Source: a virus. Taken from it: a stretch of DNA of 64,000 nt. Under the pieces are notes generated by a model. That model was not told the origin of the DNA. It did no database searches and saw only the letters and a list, made by a program, of their open reading frames with translations. Positions 1 to 32,293 of the stretch are shown one piece after another. Each line of letters starts with the position of its first letter. Within the stretch, counting starts at the first letter, position 1. Made by a program: the position numbers and the translations under genes. Location: IMG/VR virus record IMGVR_UViG_3300042520_003271, positions 1 through 64,000 of that record; one strand, given 5' to 3'.

Positions 1-1330
1 ATGTATCTCTTGATACTAAGTTGCCTAAACCTAGCTGGCCCTTGTCATTTAGGCCTGTTACTTTATAATTATATTTAAGGATAGTCGGCGTTGGCGTTGG
101 CGTTGGAGTTGGAGTTGGGGTTGGGGTTGGGGTAGGTGTTGTAGGAGCAGCTACGCAAGCTAATCTTACACCATCTGGGAAAGCGCCCGAGAAGTTATAT
201 TGTACATGATAAAAGAAACCGTCAGAAAATATCGTGTTACCTATATTGGTCACTTTGTCGCTAGGCGCAAATGTATCCCAAATTACACCATTAGTCGATC
301 GTTCGACATTTCCGCCTTGAGTAACACAAATGAAATAACCATTGCCAAACGCTAAGGAGTATACAGCGCTAGAAGAAGGGCGTATTCTTCTTGACCATGT
401 CTGGCCAAAATCTGTCGATACTGCGCATACACCAGAATCACCTGTTACTGCTATTATTGCTGAATTATTTGAACAGGCGATGGTGCGATAAAAGCCATCT
501 AAAGGCATCGAGGTAGGAATGAACGTTGGGAAAGGATCAATAGCCGACCTTGTTGATACAATACTTTCACCATTGTAGCCAACTGCAATATAAAGACCAT
601 TCTGATATACTAAGTCTTGCCAATTAGCTAGTGTAGGCAAGGTTAATAGGATCCACCCAAAGGTCCCATGCTTACGGTATGCTATTTTATTACTGATGTT
701 TTGTCTAGGATTGATACCATCATCATAGGCATTAGATATCGCATAATATGTTTTATTAATATCATTATAGACGATCTTTTTCCAATTATAGCCCGATGGC
801 AAAGGGTTATCATCTGTCCAATTAGCTTGCGTTCCGGTGTTGCTGGCAGTAACTCCATTTTCAGCGATGGCTATAAAGCCCAACGTCTCGCCTACGTAGA
901 CCACAGAAGTCCAAGCATTGGAGCTCGGAAGCACGGTGGTCGTCCACGAAATACCACCATCCGTAGAATACGCCGCAGAATTCGAAGTAAGCGTAGTATT
1001 GTCGACTTTACCGGCGATAGCTACTAAAATATTATTGCCAAAAGTTATGGCTGTCCATCCCCTTCTGAGTTTCAGATCCATCGGGATACTGGTGGCAGCG
1101 CAACCAACTGGCGTTGGTGTTGTTGGGATTGGCGTTGTTGGGATTGGCGTTGTTGGCGATGATGTGCAAGAGCTACTGGCCAGCACCCATGTTAAAATTC
1201 CACCTTTTAATTGTGCTGAATAAGTACAAAAACCAAAGCAACCCTCAGGGCAACTGTAAGGTTGTATCGCACCCACTGGAATACTAGGATTATTAACCGG
1301 CCCGAGATCTTCATAACATGTGCATGCCAT
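1..1330 (-). CDS. Modular fibre/adhesin-like protein, 5' part only (Cys-rich leader, PT linker, Asp-box propeller, PT linker, start of RCC1 repeat); runs off the left edge
   Basis: Not in the ORF track because there is no stop in the window. Manual translation from ATG at 1330 is open to base 2: MACTCYEDLG...PTTPIPTTPIP...YSTDGGISW...STDFGQTW...STNGVIW...PTPTPTPT...GLNDKGQLGLGNLVSRDT. Confidence 0.8.
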   Translation of the reverse strand, partial: MACTCYEDLGPVNNPSIPVGAIQPYSCPEGCFGFCTYSAQLKGGILTWVLASSSCTSSPTTPIPTTPIPTTPTPVGCAATSIPMDLKLRRGWTAITFGNNILVAIAGKVDNTTLTSNSAAYSTDGGISWTTTVLPSSNAWTSVVYVGETLGFIAIAENGVTASNTGTQANWTDDNPLPSGYNWKKIVYNDINKTYYAISNAYDDGINPRQNISNKIAYRKHGTFGWILLTLPTLANWQDLVYQNGLYIAVGYNGESIVSTRSAIDPFPTFIPTSMPLDGFYRTIACSNNSAIIAVTGDSGVCAVSTDFGQTWSRRIRPSSSAVYSLAFGNGYFICVTQGGNVERSTNGVIWDTFAPSDKVTNIGNTIFSDGFFYHVQYNFSGAFPDGVRLACVAAPTTPTPTPTPTPTPTPTPTPTILKYNYKVTGLNDKGQLGLGNLVSRDT

Positions 1331-1349
1331 AATTTATAACTCTATATGT

Positions 1350-1439
1350 TTAAAGTTTACTGGTTATTTTCAATGATGGCTTTTCTGGAATAGACGCCAC
1401 GATTTTGGTGCTTGTCTTTTCTATCAATTTATTATCCAT
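1350..1439 (-). CDS. Possible 29-aa peptide MDNKLIEKTSTKIVASIPEKPSLKITSKL
   Basis: ATG overlaps the protease stop codon (TAATG) and the ORF fills the gap; no homology evidence. Confidence 0.3.
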   Translation of the reverse strand: MDNKLIEKTSTKIVASIPEKPSLKITSKL

Positions 1440-2785
1440 TAGGGTGTTGGTGTTGGTGTAGGCGTTGGAGTCGCTGCAAAACCGGCCTGATAATAAATCT
1501 TTCCGTCAATTGTAATCGTAGGCTGATTGGCCCTTGGGTCGGTAAGACTTATAGTGTAAGTTCTAGGCACAGCCGCTGTTGTGTTATGAGTACTACTGTA
1601 AGCTTCGATTCTTAATTCTTGCGCTACTCTATCAATTCTACAGGCGAATCCGCTTCCTCCATTTCCCGCAAAAACTATGCCTATTATTTTTTCTACACCA
1701 TCAATTTCTGCTATCAACGCAGATCCAGAGTCACCACCTGCTGACGGCCACAGCGATCCGTCTACATGTTGGTAGGCTATAACGTCGCCATAATTAAGTA
1801 TCGTGCCAGCTTGAGATACCGACATCGCAACACCAAGACCTGTTATTTTTAACTCGCAATTAGCAGACCTCTTAGAAAAGCCTTTAGGCCCAGTCGTTCT
1901 TCCTGTGCTGCTGATGCGTCTTCCCCCAGCTATCAACCCGTCTATTTCGCTGGTAGTAGCAAAAGGCGGGATAGGCTTGTTGGTGTAATAGTCGTCGTCT
2001 GCGCTGTGCCAAGTGTTATAAGACGACTCCACATCGATATACGAATCAACAGGCATATAAATTGCTGCATCTACATAATTTATACCTGTTTTGACTATTG
2101 GAATATACCTTTTTAATCTCCCCACATTGTCGAAATTTGGATAAACATTGTGAGCGACTACTCCTGGAGGATATTTATTACCGTCCCCCGCCCATGTCAT
2201 ATCATGGTAGATATTGTAAGGGTCTATCGCCTCCAAAGCGGTATCTCTAGCTGTTGCTATGATATTTCTATATATGACAACATGGCTATTTGTGAGGCCA
2301 ACGACCCTAGAATCGATACTATCAAGACAAATCAAACCCAAGGTTCCTGCGGTAAAAGAAAAACGGCTTGTGCCAGCAACAGCTTGCCAAGCTGTGGGGT
2401 ATTGCGTTATCTGTTGGCCACCCTTCATTGGTGTTAAAAGTGGTCCTTGGAATCCTTGCAATCGCGTGATATTAGTGTCTGTAGAAGTAAAACCTTGATA
2501 AGGAGGATTATACTTGTTTATGTAGCAAGATAAATTCATAGCAAGGCTGGCTTCGACAACATCGGTAATCATATCAACACCGTCTATTGTTATCGTAGAT
2601 GGTAATACATCAGACGGTTTAAGATCACTTATATTTTGTTTCTTTAAGACATTAAAAACTATACCTATTCGACCAGTATTAACACCATCTCTATACTTAT
2701 AACCAAGACTTACTCCATGAACATCGTCTGGCGTAATATTATAAAGCTCTTCAATTTTAGCTTTCATACCTTCTGTTAATATCAT
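1439..2785 (-). CDS. Trypsin-like (S1, Nal1-like) serine protease with C-terminal PT tract
   Basis: Triad motifs GTLG...LTNSHV (His), YVDAAI (Asp), GGDSGS (Ser); N-terminal GVSLGYK...IVFNVLKK...LP...TDVVE segment resembles the Nal1 N-domain. Confidence 0.8.
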   Translation of the reverse strand: MILTEGMKAKIEELYNITPDDVHGVSLGYKYRDGVNTGRIGIVFNVLKKQNISDLKPSDVLPSTITIDGVDMITDVVEASLAMNLSCYINKYNPPYQGFTSTDTNITRLQGFQGPLLTPMKGGQQITQYPTAWQAVAGTSRFSFTAGTLGLICLDSIDSRVVGLTNSHVVIYRNIIATARDTALEAIDPYNIYHDMTWAGDGNKYPPGVVAHNVYPNFDNVGRLKRYIPIVKTGINYVDAAIYMPVDSYIDVESSYNTWHSADDDYYTNKPIPPFATTSEIDGLIAGGRRISSTGRTTGPKGFSKRSANCELKITGLGVAMSVSQAGTILNYGDVIAYQHVDGSLWPSAGGDSGSALIAEIDGVEKIIGIVFAGNGGSGFACRIDRVAQELRIEAYSSTHNTTAAVPRTYTISLTDPRANQPTITIDGKIYYQAGFAATPTPTPTPTP

Positions 2786-2797
2786 GATTATACCTCT

Positions 2798-4951
2798 TTA
2801 GTCCCACGCTGTGTATAGTACATCTAAGCTAGGTGTAGGTGTAGGTGTAGGTGTAGGTGTAGGTGTAGGTGTAGGTGTAGGTGTAGGTGTAGGTGTAGGT
2901 GTAGGTGTAGGTGTAGGTGTAGGTGTAGGTGTTCCAATACTTGCTGCTGCTAAACCTTGGCGCGCTGTCCCTACGCCAGCGACATCTCCTGAGACAACGC
3001 CGGTATTAGATACAAGATTTATCATTGACACAGCACCATTAAATCCATACCCAAAGATAGCCCTGCCGCCACCATAACCAGCAGCTGCTAAATCCCATCT
3101 TGCCGTTCCTACGCCTGTTGTGTCAGTCGCCATAACTCCAGTATTCGATACTAAATTGCTCATAGAGACATAAACAGTACCATTAAATCCATATCCAAAG
3201 ATCGCCTTGTCCGTTCCATAGACTGCTGCTGCCAAACCATATCTGGCCGTTCCTACACCAGCAGTATCGGTGGCTACAACACCAGTAGATGAAACAAGAT
3301 TACTAAATGAAACATATGCAGCGCCATCATTGCCATATCCGAAGATAGCCTTATCGGTTCCATAACTAGCTGCTGCGAGAGCATATCTTGGCGTACCTAC
3401 TCCTGTTGTGTCTGACGAGACTACACCTGTGTTCGTAACTAAATTTATAAGTGAGTAATGCCCAGAACTACCACCACCAAACCCAAATATAGCTTTATCC
3501 GTTCCATAACTTGCTGCGGCCAGTTGTTCTCTAGCAGTTCCAACACCTGTAGTATCAGATGCGACTACGCCAGTATTTGAAACAAGATTCGTCATTGTGG
3601 CATATGCCATGGCAGCACCATTAGCATTTGTATTACCATAGCCAAATATGGCTTTATCACCGCCATAGCTTGCTGCTGCTAGCCTATATCTATTCGTTCC
3701 AACACCTACTGTGTCAGTCGATACTACGCCGGTGTCTGAGACTAAATTAGTTATGTTGGTAGCAGACCCAGAAATCCCGACTCCACCTACTACGCCAAAA
3801 CCAAAAATAGCACGACTAGTACTTGCCGGCGTTGGAGTAGGTGTTGGTGTTGGAGCGGGGGCAGGGGCAGTATAGGAAGCAGAGATAATAAGATTATCGC
3901 CGGTGGTTGGTACTATGGTAATATCTTTCCAAACGCCATTGGGCTGCAATATTGCTGGCATACTTCCATTTGGGATAATTAGATTATTTCCATCGAACAC
4001 AAAATTACCTGTGGCCATGGTTGATGTTTCATAACTCCACACTAATCCGTCGATGCTAGAATAAATAGAGGGTGGCGATGTAGAATAGGTATAAACATAA
4101 TATTTCTCGAATACAGGATCATATCCAGCAAAGCTCCAACCGCCGCCACCGACTGTTGGCGTATTACCGTAAATAAAATCATTGAAATCAGTAGTAACTG
4201 CGCATCTGTTACCTGTTTTTATAGTGCCAGAAGATATTCCATTTTGGACGAATACAAATTTCCCTTTTCCGTAGGCTGCACCAAACCAGCCGTACTTGTT
4301 ATTTATATCGCCGAGTATTCTTTTCCATATCCAATTAGCGCCATTATCTAAAGAATATAGAACTCCACCATATTGATCGCTGCACGCGATTATATTCGTG
4401 TTGTTTCCAACGATACTGCTTAAGCCTACGTTGTGTGCAGGCCTGTCGGTATTTATAGTCTGATAGTCCCAATTTATACCGTCGGTTGATTTTATACATG
4501 AGCTTCCGTCATCGTTCATGACGATGAAAATGCCATTCGTAAAAGCAGCAGGCCCTATAGCGAACGATTTACTCGGCGGCTGCCAAGAAGATATAAAATC
4601 AGCTGGTATAGAACCTTGTAACCAATTAACACCGTCTTGTGACGATAAAGATATGAGCTTATCAACTATATCTATCAGTACAAATCTACCATTACCATAA
4701 AGAATGCTATGCCAGTTTCCTTCAATAGGTAATTGGAAAGGTAGCCATGTGTTTATGTTATCAGCTATCCAAGCTTGCTTAGTAGGACTATTTTGATAGC
4801 CAGCCTTATAAATTGTCGCAATGTATTTAAGAGTGCCAGCCGGTGTCGGTGTCGGCGTTGGTGTCGGGGCTGGTGTTGGGGTCGGTGTTGGTACTGGCGC
4901 TGGAGGAGCGTTACGCCCTGGGTAGATTATTGCCTCTTGTTTCCATACCAT
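2798..4951 (-). CDS. Modular beta-propeller protein (Asp-box propeller plus ~44-aa Kelch-like repeat propeller, PT linkers)
   Basis: SQDGVNW, STDGINW, SLDNGANW, SIDGLVW Asp-boxes; about six repeats of AIFGYG..NLVSNTGVVATDTTGVGTAR..LAAA; three PT tracts. Confidence 0.75.
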   Translation of the reverse strand: MVWKQEAIIYPGRNAPPAPVPTPTPTPAPTPTPTPTPAGTLKYIATIYKAGYQNSPTKQAWIADNINTWLPFQLPIEGNWHSILYGNGRFVLIDIVDKLISLSSQDGVNWLQGSIPADFISSWQPPSKSFAIGPAAFTNGIFIVMNDDGSSCIKSTDGINWDYQTINTDRPAHNVGLSSIVGNNTNIIACSDQYGGVLYSLDNGANWIWKRILGDINNKYGWFGAAYGKGKFVFVQNGISSGTIKTGNRCAVTTDFNDFIYGNTPTVGGGGWSFAGYDPVFEKYYVYTYSTSPPSIYSSIDGLVWSYETSTMATGNFVFDGNNLIIPNGSMPAILQPNGVWKDITIVPTTGDNLIISASYTAPAPAPTPTPTPTPASTSRAIFGFGVVGGVGISGSATNITNLVSDTGVVSTDTVGVGTNRYRLAAASYGGDKAIFGYGNTNANGAAMAYATMTNLVSNTGVVASDTTGVGTAREQLAAASYGTDKAIFGFGGGSSGHYSLINLVTNTGVVSSDTTGVGTPRYALAAASYGTDKAIFGYGNDGAAYVSFSNLVSSTGVVATDTAGVGTARYGLAAAVYGTDKAIFGYGFNGTVYVSMSNLVSNTGVMATDTTGVGTARWDLAAAGYGGGRAIFGYGFNGAVSMINLVSNTGVVSGDVAGVGTARQGLAAASIGTPTPTPTPTPTPTPTPTPTPTPTPTPTPTPTPTPSLDVLYTAWD
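2831..2932. repeat. Perfect hexamer tandem repeat (AGGTGT)x17 encoding (Thr-Pro)17
   Basis: Read directly from the sequence. Confidence 0.95.
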
Positions 4952-5031
4952 TTATATTCACTCCAACCTGATAAATGCATCAACTATTTATCTTTGTCGG
5001 TTAAGATCTAATAAATTAATATTTAATAAAA

Positions 5032-5655
5032 TTACTGGATCAGTTGCTGTTTGGAGCGATCTTCTAAGGCAGCAGGTTTAAGCTCTATAGATAGCGGGCT
5101 GTCGTTACCACGAAGCATAATTGCTTCCTTAGGTATTAGACCAGCGTTCTGAAGTGCTAATAGTGTCATAGGGTTAGACATGGCATTTCGAATCTTTGCG
5201 GCACTTGGTCGGCCGTGTGCGATTATTTCTGCCTGAATGTCCTTACCAATCATTACCGTAAACTCGTTCGCAGCATTTGCCTCAAACATTTGTTCGTCGG
5301 TATATCCTTCTATCCTTGTCGGCTCTGCTATTTCATAAGCTTCAGCCAATAATTTTTTAAGGATTTCTATTTCATCTAGATTTAATTTAAAAGCTTCAGT
5401 CTGTGTTTGAAAAAAGCTTTCAGTCTCCATAATCTCTGCTTCGAGATTAAGAATAACGTGCGGTAAAGCTTTTATCTTTTTTAGATGCTTTAGTTCTAGC
5501 AGTTTAGCTTGATATTTCTTTTCGCTGATTTCTTCTAGAGCAGCAGCTCTTATTCGGCCCTCTAGAAAACCCTTCAGGGTTTTAATTTTTTCCCAAACTG
5601 TTTCGCCTTGGACTTGGTACCGATAATTAAATTCCGAATTCAACTTGCTTGCCAT
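5032..5655 (-). CDS. Helical hypothetical protein, possible fibre assembly chaperone
   Basis: 207-aa ORF with AAGGAG RBS, charged coiled-coil-like composition; the only large non-repeat, non-protease gene inside the fibre cluster. Function is inferred. Confidence 0.6.
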   Translation of the reverse strand: MASKLNSEFNYRYQVQGETVWEKIKTLKGFLEGRIRAAALEEISEKKYQAKLLELKHLKKIKALPHVILNLEAEIMETESFFQTQTEAFKLNLDEIEILKKLLAEAYEIAEPTRIEGYTDEQMFEANAANEFTVMIGKDIQAEIIAHGRPSAAKIRNAMSNPMTLLALQNAGLIPKEAIMLRGNDSPLSIELKPAALEDRSKQQLIQ

Positions 5656-5690
5656 ATGAGTTTCTCCTTATAATCTATTTACTCTTTAGA

Positions 5691-7646
5691 TTATAACTTA
5701 GCACCAGACGCCTGTTGTTTAAACGTTCCTACTTGGGCTACCTCGCTGCTTGGTATTCCATTATTATTGAAGATCACCGTAGATGATGACGTGTTACTAG
5801 AATTCCAGCCGAAGGAAAAGATCGCTTGCTCTGCTCCAGATTGTCCAAAAGAGGCTGCTGAACCGGCATATTGTCTGAATGTTGCGAATGAACTATCGTT
5901 TAAAACTATGCCATTGTTATCAACAAGATTATAGGTGCCTAATGAACCAGAATTTGCATCACTAGAGCCGCCCCCGAACACTGCCTTGTCTCCTCCATAA
6001 CCGGCGGCGGCGAGGAAAAGGCGAGCTGTTCCAACACCATTAGTATCGGTTGCGACAACACCAGTATTCGACACTAAATTTGTGTTAGAGAAAGTTATCG
6101 CAGGAAAACGATAGTAACCGAATCCAAATATAGCTTTATCTGTACCATAAGAAGTCGCGGCTAGGCCATATCTCGCAGATCCAACTCCTGTGGTGTCAGC
6201 AGATATTATGCCATTGTCAGTTACATAGTTCGTTATGTTTACTGGGATGTATGACTGACCCCATGTCCCAGAATCGCCGAAGCCAAATAGTGCTTTTCCG
6301 GCTCCATATCCTACGGCTGCTAAGTTATATCTCGGTGTGCCGACTCCAGCTACGTCATAAGCCACGATGCCGCCATTAGATATAATGTTCGATAAAGATA
6401 TAACTTGGTAGTTAAGATTAATGCCATATGCAAAAATAGCTTTGCCTGTCCCGCTAGTTCCGAATGATGCTCCCGCCCCTCCTGTTCTAGTCGTAGCAAT
6501 AACCAACAAATCTTCTGAGATAATACCGAGATCTGAAACTGTGTTTATAAAAGTTCTATTATTATTTCCAAAAGCGAATACCGCACCGACTGAAGTAGTG
6601 GGTGTTGGTGTGGGTGTGGGTGTGGGTGTGGGTGTGGGTGTGGGTGTGGGTGTGGGTGTGGGTGTGGGTGTGGGTGTTGGTGTTGGTGTCGGTGTATCGT
6701 TGCTTATAACAATAATAGAATGGTCTTTTATGGCTATATAGTTTGCTGGTCCTGGCAGGTTATGGATCAGGGCTGCGTCAGGAACCTTTAAGTTATGTCC
6801 TAAACCTAATTCACCAAAAGTATTTCCTCCCCAACCATAAACTTGGCCAGTGCTGTCTAGAGCAAGGGCGCTCTTGGTTCCTGCAGCGATTTGGGTTATG
6901 ATCTTAGAAGATGAGGGTGTAGTATTTATTGCTGTCAACACTATTTTATCGTTTGAGTCGAATGGGCCTTGGCCTAGCTGAAAACTGTCATTAGCACCAG
7001 CGCCCCATGGCGTGTTGTCAAGTCTTAAAACGATAGAAAAAGCATCACCAACCGCTGCTGATAACCAATTATTAGCATCTATTAAAACAGGTGTGGTTCG
7101 TAATGATGTATCACCTAGCCCCAATTGTCCTCGTGTATTAGAACCCCATCCCCATAAGTGACCATCGTCGTCTATCAGAAGCATATGATTAGTGCCGCTG
7201 CCTGTAGCAAGACTTTTAAATTTAACCTTGCCACCTATATAGTCAGTCACAACTAACTCTGTGATGGAAACAATGGGATTAAAATTATTGCTTGCCTGTC
7301 TTCCCCAAATATATAAATTGCCTACTGTACTGAGGCCATAAGAACCCCAGTTTGAAGTAGCAACGTCCATCCATTGTATACTATCATTAATTTTAGTAAA
7401 TTCTGTATAGCCAGCGCCGGTGGTGCCAATCCCCAGCTGCCCGTATTCGTTATTCCCTGACGCCCACAATGTCTGGTCGCTCTTGATCAATAAAGTATGG
7501 CCGCTATCAGATATAGACGCTTTAGCCCACGGTCCATACTTGCTTGAGAAGGCCCAATATTCAAATGTTGGTTTAAGACTGCTTGATGTACCTAGCTGGC
7601 CGTAAAAATTGCCGCCGGCTAATAATAAACTGTTGCTTGTAGTCAT
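5691..7646 (-). CDS. RCC1-repeat plus Kelch-like repeat protein with PT linker
   Basis: Repeated WGxNxxGQLGLG motifs, then a PT tract, then AIFGFG/GVGTAR repeats. Confidence 0.8.
   Translation of the reverse strand: MTTSNSLLLAGGNFYGQLGTSSSLKPTFEYWAFSSKYGPWAKASISDSGHTLLIKSDQTLWASGNNEYGQLGIGTTGAGYTEFTKINDSIQWMDVATSNWGSYGLSTVGNLYIWGRQASNNFNPIVSITELVVTDYIGGKVKFKSLATGSGTNHMLLIDDDGHLWGWGSNTRGQLGLGDTSLRTTPVLIDANNWLSAAVGDAFSIVLRLDNTPWGAGANDSFQLGQGPFDSNDKIVLTAINTTPSSSKIITQIAAGTKSALALDSTGQVYGWGGNTFGELGLGHNLKVPDAALIHNLPGPANYIAIKDHSIIVISNDTPTPTPTPTPTPTPTPTPTPTPTPTPTPTPTPTTSVGAVFAFGNNNRTFINTVSDLGIISEDLLVIATTRTGGAGASFGTSGTGKAIFAYGINLNYQVISLSNIISNGGIVAYDVAGVGTPRYNLAAVGYGAGKALFGFGDSGTWGQSYIPVNITNYVTDNGIISADTTGVGSARYGLAATSYGTDKAIFGFGYYRFPAITFSNTNLVSNTGVVATDTNGVGTARLFLAAAGYGGDKAVFGGGSSDANSGSLGTYNLVDNNGIVLNDSSFATFRQYAGSAASFGQSGAEQAIFSFGWNSSNTSSSTVIFNNNGIPSSEVAQVGTFKQQASGAKL
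6607..6672. repeat. Perfect hexamer tandem repeat (GGTGTG)x11 within a PT linker
   Basis: Read directly; degenerate copies flank it (6601-6696). Confidence 0.9.
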
Positions 7647-7691: not shown

Positions 7692-19481
<11,790 letters not shown>

Positions 19482-20129: not shown

Positions 20130-20138
20130 AATTATCTC

Positions 20139-22470: not shown

Positions 22471-22479
22471 AATTGCCCT

Positions 22480-22938: not shown

Positions 22939-22990
22939 ATTTAGTCATCCTTAGTCTACTTTAATTTTTGCACCGATTTATATACCATTC

Positions 22991-24631
22991 TTATGCATTA
23001 TACAAAGGTAATTTGTAAACCGTACCGTTTACTCGTAGTCTAAAATATGCTGCTGGAGTAGCTGGAAGTGAAGAAGCACTACCAGAAGAGGCAGCGGATT
23101 CAACACCAGAGCCATTAGGATTTCCGATAGGATATGCTGCACTGCCTATAGAGAACTCATAGTCAGCACCAGATGTGGCATCTACTCCCATGACGAAAGC
23201 ATATTTATGGGTCGAGCTAGCGCCAGTCCCGATTACAGTCGAGTACAATCCGAATCTCGAGTCTGAATTCGCACCTATGGCAATACTGCTAGTGTTTGAT
23301 GTGGCCCCTGCACCTATGGCTATGCCGCCGTCGACAGCTGACGTTGGGTCATCGGCGACCGCCGCAGCATGTCCTATAGCTATGCTGTTGGTATTCGAAT
23401 AACTGCCGTAGCCTATGCTGGTGCATAATAGTGCGTTAGCTTTCGCGCCAGCACCTATAGCGATAGATTTCTCTCCGACTGTGCATGATGCACCAACGCC
23501 AACCCCGTCCGTGCTTAGATGGCTTATGCTCGAGGCGCTATCGCCTACGATTACATTACCACTGTTGCCAGCCTTGGCCTCGTTTCCTATGATAATATTA
23601 CGCACCGACACATTATAAGTATTATCGTTTTGTACATTAGTGCCAATCGCGACAGTATAAGTAATAGTATGGGCTGTATCCATCGCATTATAACCAACGA
23701 TCACATTATCATTAGGCTGAGAGACAAATTTTGCTGCATTTACACCAATAACAACATTTCTGAGTGTGTTAGCTGTACTTGAATATAGTGAATAATTCCC
23801 GATCGATACATTGTCAAAGGCCGTTACTGAGGTTTTAAGACTGGTTAAGGCATTAGTACCGATACTTATGTTCCGTTGGTTCGCCGAACCAGTATAGGCG
23901 GTGGTAGGGCCAATGACGATATTTCCATTCTCCAATAACTTCGAACTACTATCTAAAACCATCTGAGATTTAAGACTTGTTCCAAGAGGATCAGTGCTAG
24001 ATCCAGACCCAACCAAGGTGAAGTCGTGACTTATGTCTCCTGCCGCGCCAGTAACTGGCACATTTATAGCGCTAGTTATGCGTCCGTAACTATCGACAGA
24101 TATAACAGGTATTTTAGATCCAGATCCGTAAGACCCAGCCAAAACGCCAGTTGCTGGTAAATTAATCTTTATTGTGCCGTCTGTTGTAACTGGCGACCCA
24201 ACTATTTCAAGGGTCGTGGACTCTACAGTGATCGATTTTACAGTACCGCCGATATTAATCGGGACTAATTGTACATTTGTTAGTCGGCCATATTTATCAA
24301 CGCTTACGACAGGGACTTGCCCGCCAGATCCATATGTTCCTGGCGCTACACCAGTATTCTGTAAATCGATAGTAACTGTGCCTGATTTAGTAACTGGTGC
24401 TCCAGACACTGCCAAAGATACAGACTTTACGTCTATTGATGTAACTGTGCCGCCAAACGAAGAATTATTGACCAGTTGGATATAAGTCGCTCTTGAATCG
24501 CCATTATCACCGCCGGCATAATATAAGGAATTATCGGGCTCAGAATAAACTAATGCGCCAGATGGGAATAAATTTGGTCTTAGACCTACTGGCGGTACCA
24601 CTTTTAATCTGATAATTGTGCTTAATTCCAT
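22991..24631 (-). CDS. Tail-fibre-like protein with shaft repeats and YadA-head-like (xIAIG) repeats
   Basis: Two G(T/S)YGS..PVxSVDxYGR repeats; many NxxIG/SIAIG repeats; C-term SASSLPATPAAY...NGTVYKLPLYN. Confidence 0.75.
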   Translation of the reverse strand: MELSTIIRLKVVPPVGLRPNLFPSGALVYSEPDNSLYYAGGDNGDSRATYIQLVNNSSFGGTVTSIDVKSVSLAVSGAPVTKSGTVTIDLQNTGVAPGTYGSGGQVPVVSVDKYGRLTNVQLVPINIGGTVKSITVESTTLEIVGSPVTTDGTIKINLPATGVLAGSYGSGSKIPVISVDSYGRITSAINVPVTGAAGDISHDFTLVGSGSSTDPLGTSLKSQMVLDSSSKLLENGNIVIGPTTAYTGSANQRNISIGTNALTSLKTSVTAFDNVSIGNYSLYSSTANTLRNVVIGVNAAKFVSQPNDNVIVGYNAMDTAHTITYTVAIGTNVQNDNTYNVSVRNIIIGNEAKAGNSGNVIVGDSASSISHLSTDGVGVGASCTVGEKSIAIGAGAKANALLCTSIGYGSYSNTNSIAIGHAAAVADDPTSAVDGGIAIGAGATSNTSSIAIGANSDSRFGLYSTVIGTGASSTHKYAFVMGVDATSGADYEFSIGSAAYPIGNPNGSGVESAASSGSASSLPATPAAYFRLRVNGTVYKLPLYNA

Positions 24632-24638
24632 ATTTCAC

Positions 24639-27296
24639 CTAAATGTTGTAAAGTGGCAATTTATATTTTGTCCCGTTTATAGCAGTAGAAAGGTAAGCTG
24701 CAGGAGTACTGGGCAAACTCGATGCAGAGCCTGAATTAGCAAAATTTTCAGTACCTGTTCCGTCAGAATTCCCGAGAAGCTTACCGCCAGCGCCGCCAAT
24801 AGAGAATAAGTTAGGGATCACTAAACCATCGGCTGCTAAGCATATTCTGTTAAACATTGCGCCAGCGCCAGCTAAAGTAGGCATGATCACAAGTGCGCCT
24901 GGTGTGAATCCGGTGCAAAGCGTGTTTGAACTTCCGAGTACGGTTAATGATGTGAATCGTGCTGGCTCCAAAGCCTGCGCCTTTCCTGTAAAGGTATTTG
25001 TGGGGCTTGTGCCTGCAAAGAAAGCACCGTCATCGCCTCTTCCTATAGCGTAGACTGTGCCGTTATTCATTTTAAAATAAACATCGTATTCATTTATGAC
25101 TAAGCATTGGGTCGGTAATACAAAGTAAGGTGGTGTTGCTGTCGGCGTGATGATATCTAGTTTTGTATAAGATAATGAATTAAAGTATGGAAATATCTTG
25201 CCAGTCATAAAAGCATTTCCGACGGCTGTAACCACCACTGCACATTCATAGCCACAGGATATCGACACTATGCTAGATGTATCATATTCTGGAGTGCCTC
25301 CAAGGATCACTTTAATAAATAGAGGTACTATCTGTGGGGTGTTGTAATTTGTAGTATTCCCCAAGCCGAGCTGCCCGACATCATTTTTTCCAAATGCTAT
25401 TAAACGATTATCGCTTCTAACAGCCATTATAAAGGACTTTCCGCATTTGACCTTTGTATAAGTAGACGATCCGACAAGGGCGAAAGTGTTAGTAGAGCCA
25501 CCTGTTGTGCCATTACCTAATTGACCAAATGTATTATCGCCCATCGTGTAAAGACTATTGCCTTTGATTCCAGCCCAAGTCGTCTTCCCAGTAGCGTAAT
25601 CGCGCGCCGCTGAGATTGCTGTCCAAGCCCCAGTAGCGTTGGAGTCTATTAGAACTAAAGTATTACTTTTTGTCGCTGGATTAATCTGTCCACAACCATA
25701 CAATGACCCGTCTGTTAGAATTACATAAGTTCCATTGGCATATGCACACACCTCTCTTATTCTTACACCTAAATCCCAGCCAGGATAAGTCCATGGTATA
25801 AGCGTATATGTATACCTTGGTGTAGTATCGCCAAGCCCCAATTGACCAGCCTCATTATCACCGCAAACATATATCCTGTCTAATTCGACAGGGCTAGCAT
25901 TGCTAGCTGGCTTTACCAATGCTACATTATGAGTCTGGCCGCCAGCCAACATGGAAACGTTATCTCCCACACTATAATCAGCGACAGGAATTATCGAAGC
26001 AGATACACCAAACGGATAGACTTTAAGCGGTGATTCTGGTGGTCCGACGCCGAACTTACCGCTACCATATCCACCAGAAAAGGCAGCTCCCAGCGACCCA
26101 ACGCCAGGCAAATTATTATTGTTAGGTGTCAAAAAAGAACCAGATTTATATCCTATCGAAACGCCATTAGATGAGCCTGTAGAATAAACGCCTATAGCTA
26201 TGCATCCGGCCGGTTTGCCTGTGGTGACTATGAAAGGTTTAATTATCCCAGCGCCACTTCCTAATATAACATGGTTAGTTCCATCTACTCGGTCTCTATA
26301 GAAGCTAGTAGGTGTAGCATCATTGCCAATATAAACAGACGATTCAAGTCCGTTCATTTGTAGTGAGCTATATGGCATAGTGTTAGACTGAAGGATAACT
26401 GTAGATGTTTTAAATATAAAATTAACAGGATAAGTGATTAAGGTAGTTATCGGATTTCCGATTAGTATTGATTGCACCATTCTTATGCTAATGTTTGATA
26501 TCTTATTCCTAGGATGACCGCTCCATGTCTGGCCGATTATAATACCAGAGTAATCTGGTGTACCACCAAGGTTCGGATATCCTCCGATGCAAATTGAGTC
26601 ACTTTGTGCGCTACCGCCTGGTGTGTTTAGATCTTGAATATTACTTATAACGATCGATTTGGTGCCTGAATTGTTATAGATGCCGCTACCGAGCATAATA
26701 TTATTAGAATTACTTGGAAGATTATTCCCACCAACCGGAACGCTATAGCCAATGCTTATCGAATTATCATTTATAGATTTAGATACTGCATAACTACCTA
26801 AAGCGACACACTGCCTAGAATAAGCATCTTCCATCGCTCTTTGACCGACAGCGACATTGTTTTCGTTTATAGCATTGTTACTATTGCTCTTAACGCCGAT
26901 GCTCATCGACCCAGATGCTTTGTCGTACATCCAACTGCTGGATGAATATAATGATTTTCCGTAGTTTCCGATAAAACCAGAAATATTTTCTTCTTCGTCT
27001 TGATCAGGATTATAATTTTCAAGACTTGTGTATAAAGGGCTCGATAGATTATTCTGACCTTTTATGGTAAAGTCTGTTATGACTGGAGGTATTACAATTC
27101 CTGTCGTAGCTCCAGCAAAAGTCACAAAGCCCTTGGTATTTATTCTTAAAGTCGGCACTGTGCCGATCGATCCAAAGGTGCCAGAATTAACACCAGAGCA
27201 TTTGAGGTCGAGTTGGTAATATGGATTGTCAGGGTCCTTTTGCGGTGGCGACACAAAGTTGATAGTTTTTAGATTGTATACAATATTATTGTTCAT
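24639..27296 (-). CDS. Tail-fibre-like protein with YadA-head-like repeats and an RCC1 propeller
   Basis: GTFGS..VPTLRINTKG shaft repeat, xIxIG repeats, GDNxxGQLG repeats; C-term SASSLPSTPAAY...NGTKYKLPLYN shared with the 546-aa ORF. Confidence 0.75.
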   Translation of the reverse strand: MNNNIVYNLKTINFVSPPQKDPDNPYYQLDLKCSGVNSGTFGSIGTVPTLRINTKGFVTFAGATTGIVIPPVITDFTIKGQNNLSSPLYTSLENYNPDQDEEENISGFIGNYGKSLYSSSSWMYDKASGSMSIGVKSNSNNAINENNVAVGQRAMEDAYSRQCVALGSYAVSKSINDNSISIGYSVPVGGNNLPSNSNNIMLGSGIYNNSGTKSIVISNIQDLNTPGGSAQSDSICIGGYPNLGGTPDYSGIIIGQTWSGHPRNKISNISIRMVQSILIGNPITTLITYPVNFIFKTSTVILQSNTMPYSSLQMNGLESSVYIGNDATPTSFYRDRVDGTNHVILGSGAGIIKPFIVTTGKPAGCIAIGVYSTGSSNGVSIGYKSGSFLTPNNNNLPGVGSLGAAFSGGYGSGKFGVGPPESPLKVYPFGVSASIIPVADYSVGDNVSMLAGGQTHNVALVKPASNASPVELDRIYVCGDNEAGQLGLGDTTPRYTYTLIPWTYPGWDLGVRIREVCAYANGTYVILTDGSLYGCGQINPATKSNTLVLIDSNATGAWTAISAARDYATGKTTWAGIKGNSLYTMGDNTFGQLGNGTTGGSTNTFALVGSSTYTKVKCGKSFIMAVRSDNRLIAFGKNDVGQLGLGNTTNYNTPQIVPLFIKVILGGTPEYDTSSIVSISCGYECAVVVTAVGNAFMTGKIFPYFNSLSYTKLDIITPTATPPYFVLPTQCLVINEYDVYFKMNNGTVYAIGRGDDGAFFAGTSPTNTFTGKAQALEPARFTSLTVLGSSNTLCTGFTPGALVIMPTLAGAGAMFNRICLAADGLVIPNLFSIGGAGGKLLGNSDGTGTENFANSGSASSLPSTPAAYLSTAINGTKYKLPLYNI

Positions 27297-27304
27297 TTTT
27301 TGCT

Positions 27305-30300
27305 CTATAAGACCGTTATACCTGTAGCATCTGTAGCCTGTGTGTCAAGTGCTATTTTTCCTATCACGTATCTCGTCATACCATTGGGCGTACCATTATT
27401 ATCTCTTAGTATCTCGATGTAACTTAGTTCGAACGCGCTGACTGTTTGCGTTGCAGTAGTATAGGTGATTGGCCCCATGATAGTATAAATCGCATCATTA
27501 TTTCTGCCATTGAATGCTAAGCTACTACCGGCCCAACACATCCTTATCGTGCTTATACCTTGGCGCCCGACACCAGGGTCAGGTAATGGTATTACCCCTA
27601 ACGAAATCGGTATAATGTCTGCAAAAGGCCCAGCTGAATTATCGGTCTTAATATAATAAACGTACAATATGTTGCTAGGTAGCGGAGGGTAGCCAACCCA
27701 AGCACCACCGATGGCAAACATTTGGCCGCTCGGACTAACTGTAATGTTATCGAAAGGCAAGTTAGCAAAATCAGCACCAATTTTTGTGATGCCGCCGCCA
27801 GCTGGTTTGGTCATAAAATAAAAAGGAAGCGTTCTTATCGTAGGATAATCAACAACGGCTCTATATGAATTCTGGCCGACCATGCAATAGGGGCCAACCA
27901 TATTATAATCGCTTGACGTATCGCCTAGCGATGTCCATGCGCCCGTTGTCGTATTAATAGTACCTACTTGTCGCTTAATATTATTAATGTCTGGGAATGA
28001 AATAGCATACAGAGTACCATTATAAGCTGATATCTGTCCGAATCTATTATAAGGCAGATTAACGTTAGATATGCTTAAAGTGGCTGCCGTTTGTTCATTT
28101 ATTCTTCTCAATTGTGATTGACCTGACACAAAAGTAGTGCCGATCACTAAATTCGTTCCAACTGGTAATCTTGGATATACTAATGGTGTAGGTGTTACTG
28201 GTGTTGGCGTTGGTGGGCAATATATTCTATCATATACTAAAATATCGCCTGTTGCTCCGGCGCCGCTGAGCACATAGAGCGTTGTATTAGCAGAGTTAAT
28301 ACTGATCTCATTTCCGTATACCACACTTAATAGTGTTTGCCCAGTCCAAGCAATGTTACCAGTAGATGGATATATGATGTATTCATAGAGCCTATTAAAT
28401 TGAAAATCAGCAATATACAAAGAATTATCGACTGTTGCGAGTATACCATTGGTGCGCGTCCCAGCAAGCCCGACGGACGTGCTTGGTGTCGACGCATAAT
28501 TAATATCACCGCTAGAGGTATCTCTTGTAAAGGCCGATATTAAGCTATTACCTATGCCAGAAACGAAGATATATTTTTCAGAACAGGCAAATGTAGCTTG
28601 GCGAGGGTTTAAACTTGCAACATTTAACTCTCGAATTAAAGTCAGAGCTCCATTGCTAGCAGTCCTGCTGAATGCTTTAATCTTAGCAGCGGTAGCTGAT
28701 ACATGATATAAAAATTTTCCATCGCTAGAACCGAGCATGTAACAGACTTCTCCGACAATAGGAGTCGATAAAATAACGCTTGTCTTATCTGGTATACCGG
28801 TGCTTCCTGAAATCTTCACAATCCTTATAGCATTAGCCATAGATACGTAAAGATATGCATCGTCTGGTGAAACGTATATTCTCGCACCATTAAAAGCGTT
28901 GTTAAATCTAGTGTCTGTATCAAGCAATAATAGTAAAGCTGTACTGCCAGAATCTCTTTTGAATGTGATTAAACCGCTCTGTGTTATTATATAAATGAAG
29001 TTTTGAGAAGAAGTCATTGCTATATCATGAGGGTTTAAGGCAGCTAGGTATGAAGCATCGAAGCTTAATGAACCATCTGAATTTATAACAAACACAGATA
29101 TAGAGTTAGATCCAATGTCAGCTGTGCACAGGATCTTGGTACCATATTTTTCTGATATAATCATAGCTATATGGCTACCGCCAGCAGAAGCTGTTTGTCT
29201 TAGCGTTAATTTACCACATTGGACGATAGGTGTCGGCGTTGGCGTTGGCGTTGGCGTTGGCGTTGGCGTCGGTGTTGGAACTGGCACGCAGGTAATTTTG
29301 GCATACCTTATATCGCTTGTATCAGTAATAAGGTAATTGCCGTTGACATTATCCCAGCTGGCCGGATCACCTTTAAATGACGGTATATTAATTGTGATGG
29401 TGTCACCGGCTGTAAACTTTTTCAAGCTTACGACAGGGAGGTTACTGTCTAACGTTGGCTGGCCGTTATTTAAAAAAGCGATGGAAAAAACACCAGAGCC
29501 AAGGTTATTTAAAGTTATCGAATATAGCGTTGTGCCGCTTGCAGCATAGCCATTGAATCCAGCACCATTGCTTGAAAGAATAGTATCACCAGTATATAGC
29601 GGAATTGTTATTTTTCCGATCGTAGAACTCCAACCAGAAAAGCAATCTGATCTGCGTGACGCTACGCTACAAAATATGTAAGGGTCATTGAACCCAAATG
29701 CCTCGACCGCCCCCGCGATATTTGGTATTTTAGTAAAATTATAAACGCTTTTATTCATATAATCAGCTAGGCCAGGAGGAAGAAACCCAGAAGCATATGC
29801 TGTCCCATCATTTTTTATAACTATGCTAAAGTCATCGCCAGCATGGACGGTTTTCCAATCTCTGTCAGTGCTTAATTGTATAAATTTATTAGAATCTAAC
29901 CTTGAGTTGTTTCCGAGCTGGCCACTATTATTTCGGCCAGTACCGACCAAAAGACCGCCAGGAAGGATAGCTAAGGTATGGTTTCTGCCAGCTGATACTA
30001 CTAAAGAATTATCAAGAGCCTTTATATAAAAATTACTTACTGGTGTAATAGTGTTGCCTGTACCGCACTGACCGGAACTGTTGTCGCCGTATGCCGTCCA
30101 AGTCGTACCCCCAGCAATTGGATCCTTAGTCACTTTGAAGTAAGAGTCGTAGCCACTATATGCATATTTTGGGATCTCATCGATCGTATAAAGCGTTGAA
30201 GCCTCTTCCTCCATGGTCATACTAGTCGGCGCGGTTCCTGGTCTGACGTCGATATTATAAATCGCTTGATAAACCGCACGATCAGAAGTGAAAGCCCTGA

Positions 30301-32293
30301 GTATTGGATACGGTTCAGTCGAGTTAGTACCTTGAAATTTAGTACATCTTACATCTATAAAGTTAGTAGGCGACGGATTTACTTCAATCAATCCTAGGCT
30401 GGTTTGTTTTTTAAAACTTGTAATCCTTTTTAGACCTGTGCCTTTTGAAGTATAAATATCACCTACCCATAGTGTACCATCAGTTTTAACGGCAGCTATA
30501 ATACCATGGCCTGTCGCGACTTTTTTCCAAGCATATGTGTCAAATGGCTGTTTATATTTCGTAACCTTTTTGACATCATCGAGAGTAGCTCGGAATAAAG
30601 GAGCTAAGCCAGCACATTCAGGATTAGCGCCAGTAGTATAAATATTATTACCACTAAGATCTATCATACATGTAACGCCAGAGAGAAACGGGCCACCATA
30701 GAATGGATAGCCATCACCTGATGACCAATATTCGACATCAGATGCTTGCTCGACATAACCGCCACGATATGCTCTAATTAAATAGCGTTTAGGATCAGTT
30801 AGCGTCGGTGTAGGCGTATTTGGCGAGCAGTTCTGCCTAGAAAACATCGTGATCGAATCTTTATATTCATTAGGCACATAAATATTTAAGCCATCATAGC
30901 TTATACATAGATTAAAACCGCCTCTGGTGGCGATTAAACCGACAGCTGATAACGAGCCAGTGGTTATGTTGCGCTTGAAAATGCTTATGCTATTGCTTAT
31001 ACTTATCACATAGGCGCTAGTCCCATCGGCGCTAATTACGATACCGCAAGGCTCATTAGATGCTATAGTATCTCTTTTTGTTAGAAGGCCAGTTGTGGTG
31101 CTGCGATCATAGCATATTATAGTATTGTTATCGATCGCAGCGGCGGTGCCGCGGAAAGTGACGTAAACGTTTTTACCATTTGGGCTTATGGCGATGCCAT
31201 TTCCTATACCAGTTGAAATGGTACTAGCTAGAGTGAGTAAACCAGATGAAATATTGCGTCCAAATATCGACAGCGTGCGCGATGAGCCACCGACGCTAAG
31301 AACATATGCATTCTTGTCGTCGGGACTTATGGCTATATAATATGGTTCGTTCCCTGCTGCTATAGCGCCAATTGATGCTAATAAGCCAGTAGCATTGTCT
31401 CTACTATACATATAAACAGTATCATCTACTTGGTTTGTAACATAGACATTTTTACCGTCTGTAGATGAACTTATAGCTGTCGGCTGCAGCCCAGTCACTA
31501 CTGTTCCTAGTGATGTCAATGATCCAGTTGCCGTATCGCGCCTAAACATTTGAACTATGCATGAAGTATCACTTATTGTGCTGGCAATATATATGTTTCT
31601 ACTGTCAGAGGTAATGCAAATAGCAGACGGATATCCTGTAACGATAATAGTGTCCAATACAGCCAATAAGCCGGTACCTGGTTTACGCTCATAAATTGTG
31701 ATGATACCAGTGTTCGTGACATATATGAACTTATCGTCAGGGCTAATGCAAATACCGTGCGGAAAAGCACCGGTCAATATAAAACCTAAATCTGTAAGTT
31801 CATCGCATTGAACCGGCGGAGGTGTTGCTGGCGGCGGGCAAGTCGGTAATTGTGTCGGGACACCGTATATTTCTAAGTCATCAGAGTCCATTTCCATCAG
31901 CGTTACTGTGCCGCCGGCTGTAGTATTCTGTACTTCACTGATTCTTGTAACAAATCCAAGTGAATTTGCTGTGATGATTGGGATTGTGGTTGATGAACCG
32001 TACTGTCCGACTACAGCTTTATTTTCGATAAGATCTATCTTGATCGTGCCGGTTCTTGTTATTGGTCCGCCGCTTAATACGAGTGTGTTCGTGTCAAAGT
32101 TAAAACCATTTACACTTCCAGCGCCAATGTTTATTTTACTGATGTAAGTGGCTCTGTTGTAGCCATTATTGCCGCCAGCGTAGAAGAGAAAAGCGTCATC
32201 TTCAAAGAAAAAGATAGTTCCAGAATAAAACTTATTTGGAGCTAGATTTGTCGGTACTGGGCCTTGCAGCCTTAATATAGTTCCAATATCCAT
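27305..32293 (-). CDS. 1662-aa modular fibre/adhesin (second anchor type, two lactonase-like propellers, divergent RCC1, C-terminal propeller-like region)
   Basis: MDIGTILRL...FYAGGNNG.NRATYI; ISPDDKxxYV...TGxL repeats; GRNNSGQLG; PT tracts. Confidence 0.8.
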   Translation of the reverse strand: MDIGTILRLQGPVPTNLAPNKFYSGTIFFFEDDAFLFYAGGNNGYNRATYISKINIGAGSVNGFNFDTNTLVLSGGPITRTGTIKIDLIENKAVVGQYGSSTTIPIITANSLGFVTRISEVQNTTAGGTVTLMEMDSDDLEIYGVPTQLPTCPPPATPPPVQCDELTDLGFILTGAFPHGICISPDDKFIYVTNTGIITIYERKPGTGLLAVLDTIIVTGYPSAICITSDSRNIYIASTISDTSCIVQMFRRDTATGSLTSLGTVVTGLQPTAISSSTDGKNVYVTNQVDDTVYMYSRDNATGLLASIGAIAAGNEPYYIAISPDDKNAYVLSVGGSSRTLSIFGRNISSGLLTLASTISTGIGNGIAISPNGKNVYVTFRGTAAAIDNNTIICYDRSTTTGLLTKRDTIASNEPCGIVISADGTSAYVISISNSISIFKRNITTGSLSAVGLIATRGGFNLCISYDGLNIYVPNEYKDSITMFSRQNCSPNTPTPTLTDPKRYLIRAYRGGYVEQASDVEYWSSGDGYPFYGGPFLSGVTCMIDLSGNNIYTTGANPECAGLAPLFRATLDDVKKVTKYKQPFDTYAWKKVATGHGIIAAVKTDGTLWVGDIYTSKGTGLKRITSFKKQTSLGLIEVNPSPTNFIDVRCTKFQGTNSTEPYPILRAFTSDRAVYQAIYNIDVRPGTAPTSMTMEEEASTLYTIDEIPKYAYSGYDSYFKVTKDPIAGGTTWTAYGDNSSGQCGTGNTITPVSNFYIKALDNSLVVSAGRNHTLAILPGGLLVGTGRNNSGQLGNNSRLDSNKFIQLSTDRDWKTVHAGDDFSIVIKNDGTAYASGFLPPGLADYMNKSVYNFTKIPNIAGAVEAFGFNDPYIFCSVASRRSDCFSGWSSTIGKITIPLYTGDTILSSNGAGFNGYAASGTTLYSITLNNLGSGVFSIAFLNNGQPTLDSNLPVVSLKKFTAGDTITINIPSFKGDPASWDNVNGNYLITDTSDIRYAKITCVPVPTPTPTPTPTPTPTPTPIVQCGKLTLRQTASAGGSHIAMIISEKYGTKILCTADIGSNSISVFVINSDGSLSFDASYLAALNPHDIAMTSSQNFIYIITQSGLITFKRDSGSTALLLLLDTDTRFNNAFNGARIYVSPDDAYLYVSMANAIRIVKISGSTGIPDKTSVILSTPIVGEVCYMLGSSDGKFLYHVSATAAKIKAFSRTASNGALTLIRELNVASLNPRQATFACSEKYIFVSGIGNSLISAFTRDTSSGDINYASTPSTSVGLAGTRTNGILATVDNSLYIADFQFNRLYEYIIYPSTGNIAWTGQTLLSVVYGNEISINSANTTLYVLSGAGATGDILVYDRIYCPPTPTPVTPTPLVYPRLPVGTNLVIGTTFVSGQSQLRRINEQTAATLSISNVNLPYNRFGQISAYNGTLYAISFPDINNIKRQVGTINTTTGAWTSLGDTSSDYNMVGPYCMVGQNSYRAVVDYPTIRTLPFYFMTKPAGGGITKIGADFANLPFDNITVSPSGQMFAIGGAWVGYPPLPSNILYVYYIKTDNSAGPFADIIPISLGVIPLPDPGVGRQGISTIRMCWAGSSLAFNGRNNDAIYTIMGPITYTTATQTVSAFELSYIEILRDNNGTPNGMTRYVIGKIALDTQATDATGITVL
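29235..29264. repeat. Hexamer tandem repeat (GGCGTT)x5 in a PT linker
   Basis: Read directly from the sequence. Confidence 0.85.

Follow-up and report, generated by a model that had tools for sequence, protein, structure and literature searches.

The first 32,293 nucleotides (nt) of the DNA analysed here raise the question of whether the repeat DNA that separates the domains of phage adhesins serves to reshuffle these domains, or simply tolerates their reshuffling. The window, as we call the whole stretch of 64,000 nt, is the first part, bases 1-64000, of a virus contig of 86,912 nt (IMG/VR record IMGVR_UViG_3300042520_003271, G000 below). It opens with an array of 13 consecutive open reading frames (ORFs), g1 to g13, all on the minus strand (2 to 32293), in which strings of protein modules are separated by Pro-Thr (PT) or PPP tracts. 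A second array, to which the genes h3 and h4 belong, lies outside the window (contig 65098-86341; products of 460, 642, 1603 and 4361 amino acids (aa); 16 further PT tracts), and these bead-on-string genes take up at least 53 kb of the 87-kb contig. An initial annotation of the window saw in the array a receptor-diversification system, on a par with diversity-generating retroelements (DGRs) or invertases, that would use shared linker DNA to swap whole domains. Our comparison of related lineages confirms that modules vary at the linkers. The best explanation, which we hold to be probable when its parts are taken jointly, is that an uncultured freshwater (lake) jumbo phage with a contractile tail carries modular adhesion fibres, the cassettes of which evolve slowly on tolerant PT linkers and with no active switching.

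Results

The proteins were cut at their PT/PPP tracts, all pieces were compared pairwise, and one hidden Markov model (HMM) was then built per module family. We retain the letters given to the families by the initial annotation (R, RCC1; A, Asp-box; L, lactonase-like; K, Kelch-like; F, FG-GAP; X, a small domain) and write pt for a tract. The module orders that had been read from the sequence were reproduced by our HMMs, namely (N1)-F-R-A-R-X-R-R-L-R-stub-K-L in g6, (N2)-L-R-X-L-(tip) in g13, A-K in g3 and R-K in g5; g1 was seen as an A followed by PT and ends at the contig edge. Likewise, the module borders do lie at PT/PPP tracts, in 10 of 12 cases in g6 and in 18 of 22 over g1, g3, g5, g6 and g13, and no tract falls inside a module envelope. 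Paralogous copies share 43-61% identity for K, 25-33% for R and 27-34% for L, and the paralogous modules are old.

Four lineages were compared: that of the window (W), G001 (a 274,625-nt relative, identical to G002), L145 (a 54-kb metagenome contig) and L147. Nucleotide identity among the related lineages is 75-86%, and the backbone genes of W and G001 share 77-90%; with g7 as the anchor, the only close relatives found were G001 and G002. Module content varies among these relatives, as had been proposed, with whole-cassette differences at the g3, g5, g13, h3 and h4 positions. At the g5 position, W has R-pt-K (651 aa), L145 has R-pt-L-pt-K (1013 aa), and both G001 and L147 have R-pt-L-pt-L-pt-K (1309 and 1293 aa). 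The flanks of this junction, 'DHSIIV.SN' and 'TTSVGAVFAFGNN', are conserved up to the tract on both sides, which makes it a PT-to-PT indel, and the L of L145 shares only 41% identity with one L module of G001 and 37% with the other. After a conserved 14-aa head, the g3 position reads pt-A-pt-K in W, pt-K-pt-A-pt-K in L145 and pt-A-pt-L-pt.. in G001, where the contig end truncates it. The g13 orthologue in G001 has an extra X between two tracts (X-pt-X), the h3 orthologue an extra X-L block between two tracts, and h4 (4361 aa, with three K cassettes) shares both ends with its G001 orthologue (4418 aa) and differs from it in several inner cassettes. The g1 orthologue of L145 encodes 1888 aa with pt-A-pt-R-pt-F repeats, and g2 is missing from L145. 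Global alignments of 13 orthologous pairs bear out the claim that breakpoints are enriched at linkers: all five gaps of at least 150 aa lie within 10 aa of a tract, as close as only 7.7% of residues lie, and at a lower threshold of 30 aa this is true of 7 of the 13 gaps.

These cassettes are orthologues and not freely interchanged parts, since in a tree of 19 L cassettes they group by position and none has as its nearest relative a cassette from a different position in a different genome. Both L modules of the g5 orthologue in G001 come out as sisters in this tree and are therefore best read as a tandem duplication in place, as is the X-pt-X of the g13 orthologue. Module pairs within G001 reach at most 54% identity, and the extra cassettes of L145 match anything compared at no more than 43% (L) and 63% (K); no cassette event looks, by sequence, recent or copied from within the genome. 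As a separate observation, the proteins of g2, g3 and h4 close with a PT tract and 0-10 residues after it (window 1439-1477 and 2828-2935; contig 73286-73408), and these terminal tracts may be the remains of lost C-terminal cassettes.

In g6, the order of the modules is identical in all lineages and neighbouring modules have different histories. Between W and G001, the aa identity by module runs 93, 94, 81, 89, 67, 67, 90, 93, 96, 98 and 40%, and at conserved residues the fraction of codons that are also identical lies between 0.43 and 0.87. Whole-gene runs placed four change-points in nt identity, three of them within 3 aa of a linker (three of four within 15 aa, where on average 0.46 would be expected at random; P=0.006), and in six pairwise comparisons of the shared C-terminal half, which are non-independent and involve three linkers, 11 of 14 change-points lie within 15 aa of a linker. 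Across the four lineages, module m6 is 97% identical between G001 and L147, m7 is 90% identical between W and G001 and 59% between G001 and L147, and m11 is 67% identical between W and L145, 64% between G001 and L147 and 37-40% in the cross pairs. The tree of L cassettes accordingly joins (W,G001)(L145,L147) at m7 and (W,L145)(G001,L147) at m11, both with starred support, and these conflicting trees imply recombination between lineages in whole-module units.

The tracts themselves are coding microsatellites. There are 21 PT/PPP tracts in g1-g13, and Tandem Repeats Finder (TRF) arrays have units of 6 or 12 nt in up to 17 copies at 100% matches (2830-2932, 6-nt unit x17.2, 100% matches; 6598-6695, 6-nt unit x16.3; 16972-17057, 12-nt unit x7.2, 100% matches). 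A scan of the coding strand found 19 tracts in 1-32293, 15 in 65098-86341 and one weak non-PT match in the 32.8 kb between the two arrays; PT tracts are thus restricted to the fibre genes. Orthologous tracts measure 45/37, 21/27, 15/17, 18/16, 19/21 and 28/30 aa, and their dominant codon pairs change. With length kept within a few residues and the codon units changed, this pattern fits selection that acts on the peptide, accompanied by local slippage, and not selection for shared DNA.

None of the comparisons at short distance revealed a rearrangement. Over two stretches of 20,780 and 10,636 nt, which include tracts, the separate records G001 and G002 match at 100%, and a further relative, G004, aligns with the window at 97.8% identity along 14,439 nt, the only gaps being one of 3 nt and one of 1 nt. 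Contigs from four lake runs show no difference from the window wherever a tract is bridged, in a comparison of contigs that hides rare variants and says nothing of uncovered parts; in three runs, contigs span the g3 A|K junction and most of those in g6 without a difference. Some apparent joints at tracts were considered as chimeric junctions and rejected: their sides reach 20-35 letters within PT, their depth reaches about 2300x and their loose ends are GC-rich, and for these reasons we attribute them to PT tracts of other organisms. Contig depth in the four lake metagenomes reaches 100-2600x at PT tracts, with GC-rich loose ends, and is about 5-20x beside them (e.g. window 8630-9767 and 14320-14888); PT-coding microsatellites seem to occur widely among other organisms of these lakes.

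Searches for the machinery of known diversity generators were negative. Reverse transcriptase (PF00078) gave no match in G000 and G001, which are incomplete records (24% and 70%), and the control genomes were positive; serine and tyrosine recombinases (PF00239, PF00589) gave no match in the same two records. A repeat search of 1-34200 yielded no inverted repeat of at least 40 nt and no high-identity pair resembling the template and variable repeats (TR/VR) of a DGR, the direct repeats of this region being PT tracts, K blades and RCC1 motifs of 60-86% identity. With no recombinase, no inverted repeats and all genes on one strand, the array does not have the features of invertase- or shufflon-type switching.

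Most modules belong to recognisable families. Matches to RCC1/WD40_RLD in Pfam exceed the cut-off in g5, g6, g12 and g13 (PF25390, 558 bits in g6 with a cut-off of 150; PF00415, 272 bits in g6, 83.9 in g5, 72.4 in g12 and 37.3 in g13 with a cut-off of 21.7). Lactonase PF10282 scores 143.8 bits in g6 and 140.5 in g13 (cut-off 21.7), with 59.6 and 75.5 bits for single modules, and for L the label stands for a fold family only. FG-GAP_2 (PF14312) is found in g6 (76.8 bits), g8 (89.9) and h3 (31.1; cut-off 23). For the A module, the g1 copy reaches 24.9 bits with BNR/Asp-box PF02012 (cut-off 27) and the g3 copy matches no family; h4 has a weak Sortilin-Vps10 match. At the N-termini, Mtd_N (PF18454; cut-off 26.3) is present in g6 (41.0 bits), g7 (39.6), g8 (47.4) and g9 (47.9), which also match many PHROG families of tail fibres and virion structural proteins (best E=1e-18); among g1, g2, g3, g5, g10-g13, h3 and h4, none has Mtd_N above the cut-off. 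A different N-terminal domain, N2, is common to g10, g11 and g13. As to cysteines, 9 of 10 L modules, 7 of 9 A and 4 of 4 X have a Cys no more than 10 aa from each of their two ends, whereas none of the 12 R or 7 K modules does, and six of the seven K modules lack Cys altogether; Cys-ended cassettes are found, for example, at window 11124-12176, 7695-8753 and 16083-16961. This pattern suggests that a disulfide clasp may close the L, A and X plug-in cassettes.

The K module is not Kelch-like, as it had been called. The K of g3 matches no Pfam family at E<=1 and that of g6 only DUF7831 at E=0.12, and Kelch appears in the Atlas as a minority label of distant clusters that score 0.90-0.91 with the K query. 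A K module is built of six repeats, each about 48 aa long. Compared with the PDB, a profile made from six K copies weakly matched two lectins of Photorhabdus, PLL2 (E=0.036) and PHL (E=0.089); the Atlas clusters nearest to K are 100% viral, and among clusters with a name the closest, at a score of 0.92, is a 'PLL-like beta propeller'. In a protein collection, 2408 of the 8000 candidates scored are K homologues at E<=1e-5. Among the 120 nearest homologues listed, 14 carry PF26607, a family of PLL-type lectin propellers, as a precomputed label and two are fused to Mtd_N; among longer proteins, 483 of 7999 contain K at E<=1e-10 fused to other families, with PF13385, a concanavalin-type lectin domain, as the commonest label by eye among the rows listed. 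K is therefore described here as what it probably is, a widespread virus-specific adhesion cassette and lectin propeller. A tree of 33 distinct K domains of at least 230 aa was poorly resolved and was not used.

K has a conserved neighbour in g4, which belongs to no family and was without a match in Atlas and PDB sequence searches. From 160 loci anchored on g4 we removed 26 duplicates, 20 without an upstream ORF and 19 with a cut ORF; of the 95 distinct complete upstream ORFs that were left, 74 have K at their end, among them 47 that consist of K alone (up to 400 aa). With K directly upstream of g4 in 74 of 95 cases, K-g4 is an old gene pair to which modules were added in this lineage. In L058, a 78-kb IMG/VR contig from a more distant relative, g4 has the gene of a 1104-aa K-pt-K protein on its upstream side and, downstream, that of a 1647-aa protein in which PT tracts separate six K cassettes.

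Discussion

Our observations fit a picture in which an N-terminal anchor, of Mtd_N type in g6-g9 and N2 in g10, g11 and g13, is followed by a string of self-contained, probably sugar-binding beta-propellers spaced by extended, stiff PT linkers. From the N-terminal domains and the neighbourhood we infer a location on the virion, where such proteins would act as flexible, multivalent, glycan-binding fibres, their PT linkers perhaps O-glycosylated. The lineages show that cassettes have been gained, lost, duplicated and exchanged as alleles within bounds set by the linkers; over evolutionary time, modules would be duplicated in place, deleted, inserted, or exchanged for divergent alleles between co-infecting relatives. 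Two reasons may explain why the junctions lie in PT tracts: a linker would tolerate any in-frame junction and any length, and a 6-nt repeat could at the DNA level preserve the frame and provide both microhomology and opportunities for slippage. Rare slippage, template switching or short-homology crossovers within tracts would then yield viable products, and ordinary homologous recombination in conserved modules would spread cassette alleles among co-infecting relatives. Such a process would be slow, being visible at about 20% nt divergence and not at 0-2%, and would need no dedicated enzyme and no programmed mechanism. A bolder version of the second reason, which we regard as conceivable yet doubtful, casts the PT microsatellites as phase-preserving joints that add, delete and duplicate lectin-like propellers by slippage, template switching or short-homology recombination, with linkers that may be O-glycosylated by the adjoining island of GDP-sugar and glycosyltransferase genes.

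Several points weigh against slow cassette evolution on anchored fibres as we have drawn it. No recognised anchoring domain was found in g1, g2, g3, g5, h3 and h4, and the assignment of K to the lectins draws on weak scores and on precomputed labels carried by a minority of its homologues. Six of the 13 gaps of at least 30 aa lie away from tracts, mostly in the poorly alignable middle of h4; one whole-gene change-point of g6 lies 107 aa inside module m7, and 3 of the 14 change-points of the pairwise runs are at least 31 aa from a tract. Steps in identity at module borders also arise from crossovers in conserved flanks, so that the steps do not locate the crossovers, and only the indels require junctions inside linkers. 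Selection for folded products alone could confine the surviving junctions to linkers. Finally, no contig piece among those listed for the four runs spans the window's R-pt-K junction of g5, with its tract at 6592-6701, a 30-mer at the flank of this tract is absent from all other viral contigs, and a collapsed assembly at this junction is possible.

A stronger role for the DNA, in which PT microsatellites have been selected as shared recombination points and UvsX, UvsY and SSB shuffle cassettes often enough for host-range diversification, is in our view unlikely. Every cassette-sized gap does lie at a tract, and the g5 junction does run from PT to PT between conserved flanks, yet the cassettes cluster by position and no close donor was found for any that was inserted. 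Among the 666 pairs that the contig's 37 tracts form, 20 share an exact match of at least 20 nt and one of these shares 66 nt, but the median shared match is 8 nt and at least 30 nt is reached in three pairs. A 6-nt repeat would keep the frame at any in-register crossover, and the lengths of orthologous tracts do differ by few repeats; against this, codon units differ between tracts, orthologous ones included, as expected under selection on the peptide. Nor is the tract a regular companion of K, which is fused without PT in 111 of 117 longer homologues (it comes after a PT tract in 6 of 117, and in a single one of 72 homologues close to its own length). As to the recombination genes to which the initial annotation had pointed, UvsX and SSB are confirmed in the window and would suit frequent shuffling, and the UvsY-like ORF stays below the cut-off; no change is seen at 0-2% divergence, however, and the bridging contigs of the four runs keep the order of the window, a weak argument given that rare variants are hidden. 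The initial annotation was right that modules vary at linkers; with cassettes clustered by position, no close donor and little shared tract DNA, its active diversification system, equivalent to DGRs or invertases, is wrong or at least unsupported.

Two further alternatives concern the nature of the proteins and the quality of the data. The same architecture and evolution could belong to 'hairs' of the head or sheath, or to non-virion adhesins of the infection stage, and not to tail fibres, a reading that we consider improbable. Six large proteins indeed have no recognised fibre N-terminus, but g6-g9 carry Mtd_N and match many tail-fibre PHROGs, and some K homologues are fused directly to Mtd_N. 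In more distant relatives different genes follow g15, which would make the insertion of the array lineage-specific, whereas in the Synechococcus phage S-SRM01 the RCC1 genes adjoin a long tail fibre gene. Passages of a jumbo-phage review tell of hair-like and mop-like fibres and of whiskers and hair-like fibres on heads or sheaths (PMC7824862). It is far less probable still that assembly errors, through collapse or wrong joins at long microsatellites in short-read metagenomes, account for the cassette differences. Public contigs do end at longer tracts, G004 and G001 both stop within PT tracts, and the window's g5 junction has no independent bridging; G001 and G002, however, agree at 100% across tracts, and the A|K and most g6 junctions are bridged with no differences in three runs. 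The R-L-K and R-L-L-K states are real, because an assembler cannot invent cassettes, L145 has a third and different L, and R-L-L-K occurs in two genotypes from separate records (G001 and L147).

Slow evolution of cassettes on tolerant linkers has parallels in other systems. In Streptococcus thermophilus phages, collagen-like (Gly-X-Y) repeats separate antireceptor domains, according to a passage of PMC5601072, and a passage of PMC7242381 credits the proposal that such repeats are recombination hot spots to Desiere et al.; to the extent that these passages tell, the idea of repeat linkers as recombination points in phage receptor-binding genes is already in print, and low-complexity, repeat-encoded linkers bound variable receptor-binding domains there as here. 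The array differs in that its linkers are PT encoded by 6-nt microsatellites, its propellers measure about 300-400 aa with up to 12 modules per protein, and its owner is a jumbo phage with a contractile tail known from sequence alone. The distal tail-fibre and adhesin genes gp37/gp38 of T-even phages are mosaics whose segments are exchanged via short conserved motifs. They resemble the array in that host-range segments are exchanged between related phages with breakpoints at short conserved motifs, but there is no sequence relation, and in the array whole independent domains are exchanged and their number also varies. With the DGR and Mtd of Bordetella phage BPP-1, the array shares the Mtd_N domain of g6-g9 and the proposed purpose, receptor diversification; unlike BPP-1, it shows no reverse transcriptase (in the 86.9-kb contig and the 274.6-kb relative), TR/VR-like repeat or C-type-lectin variable domain.

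Pro-Thr linkers known as 'PT boxes' join the domains of bacterial cellulases and other secreted multidomain enzymes and are often O-glycosylated. Both kinds of protein have extended PT linkers between independently folding extracellular domains, but the former are bacterial enzymes, and glycosylation in the array is a hypothesis that comes from the neighbouring glycosyltransferase genes. In S-SRM01, a freshwater jumbo myophage, the RCC1 genes adjoin fibre, glycosyltransferase and sugar-epimerase genes and show about 31% identity, but the propellers are separate genes of 345-405 aa and not PT-fused cassettes. Exon shuffling with phase-compatible introns is alike in concept, since frame-neutral spacers allow domains to be inserted, deleted or duplicated; the likeness is an analogy only, as no splicing is involved here and the role of the spacer DNA is unproven. 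In the articles searched, we found no description of PT-linked propeller fibres.

Mosaicism of receptor-binding genes is well known, and no new kind of diversity generator is revealed here. What the array offers is an unusually legible example, in which microsatellites mark the domain borders at the DNA level, and three natural lineages that differ by whole beads at the same marks form a natural data set on whether linkers tolerate or promote shuffling. K is a large, unnamed, virus-specific propeller family, with at least 2408 homologues among those scored and a conserved 207-aa partner gene, and is a candidate for glycan binding in uncultured aquatic phages. These results may be of practical value for the annotation and engineering of phage host-range modules.

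Genomic context

Table 1. Genes, tracts and neighbouring features of the window (module letters as in the text).
Feature	Position	Strand	Description
g1	2..1330	-	truncated at contig end; 68-aa head, then pt-A-pt..
g2	1439..2785	-	448 aa; 'P' module 60% identical to h3 N-terminus; C-terminal PT tail
g3	2798..4951	-	717 aa; 14-aa head, then pt-A-pt-K-pt tail
g4	5032..5655	-	207 aa; no family; conserved downstream partner of K-ending gene
g5	5691..7646	-	651 aa; R-pt-K
g5 PT tract	6579..6695	-	mostly (ACA CCC)n; cassette indel site
g6	7692..19481	-	3929 aa; (Mtd_N) F-R-A-R-X-R-R-L-R-stub-K-L; 10 PT/PPP tracts
g6 PT tract between K (m10) and last L (m11)	8754..8837	-	identity to G001 drops from 98% to 40% across tract
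g6 longest PT tract	16962..17096	-	45 aa; 12-nt unit x7.2
g7, g8, g9	19494..22470	-	three shorter genes, Mtd_N-type N-terminus as in g6; g8 also FG-GAP
g10, g11, g12	22480..27296	-	g10/g11 N2 N-termini; g11 weak tail-spike match; g12 885 aa, RCC1 repeats
g13	27305..32293	-	1662 aa; N2, then L-R-X-L, then 292-aa tip without family match
g14 to g16	32294..34199	-	g15 (32884-33666) weak gp13-type neck/adaptor candidate
GDP-mannose 4,6-dehydratase	35237-36196	+	E=9e-130
three glycosyltransferase genes	37864-38715, 39411-40364, 40361-42322	-	sugar island 35237..42322
SSB	45605-46558	-	confirmed
UvsY-like	46567-47085	-	17.9-18.4 bits, below cut-off 22.8
DnaB helicase	49559-50899	-	
UvsX-like recombinase	51225-52337	-	confirmed

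CheckV estimates the completeness of the contig at 24% and that of G001 at 70%; by inference, the full genome would measure roughly 360-390 kb. G001 encodes a tail sheath gene. In the GenBank phage collection there was no DNA match to 1-25000 or 32000-52000 and no protein match to g4 or K. The aquatic jumbo lineage 'Moraphage' was considered as a match and set apart by its description only, since the part of PMC12619734 concerned with its marker gives PolB and the polymerase here is of a split DnaE type.

Next to the array, the assignment of g15 to the neck comes from weak matches, to phrog_211 (E=3.8e-4) and, with a profile of 11 orthologues, to gp13 in the PDB (E=0.003, residues 18-69 only). 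Relatives with a g15 of at most 78% identity (loci L104-L138) have, after g15, conserved genes of about 300 and about 950 aa, and because these distant relatives have other genes in this place, the position of the array beside the neck gene is lineage-specific. In the sugar island, one glycosyltransferase gene combines two GT2 parts with a galactosyltransferase-type part; the Thr-rich linkers could, as a hypothesis, be the substrate of the glycosyltransferases encoded there.

Among the replication genes, a 399-aa ORF (window 47307-48506) matches only the C-terminal end of a family A DNA polymerase (37.2 bits), and a PDDEXK_15 phage endonuclease is encoded at 44543-45214. At 57233-62608, the DnaE-type DNA polymerase is split in two ORFs (a 466-aa N-terminal and a 907-aa C-terminal part), between which lie ORFs of 114, 145 and 143 aa, one of them with a C2H2/BED-type zinc finger.

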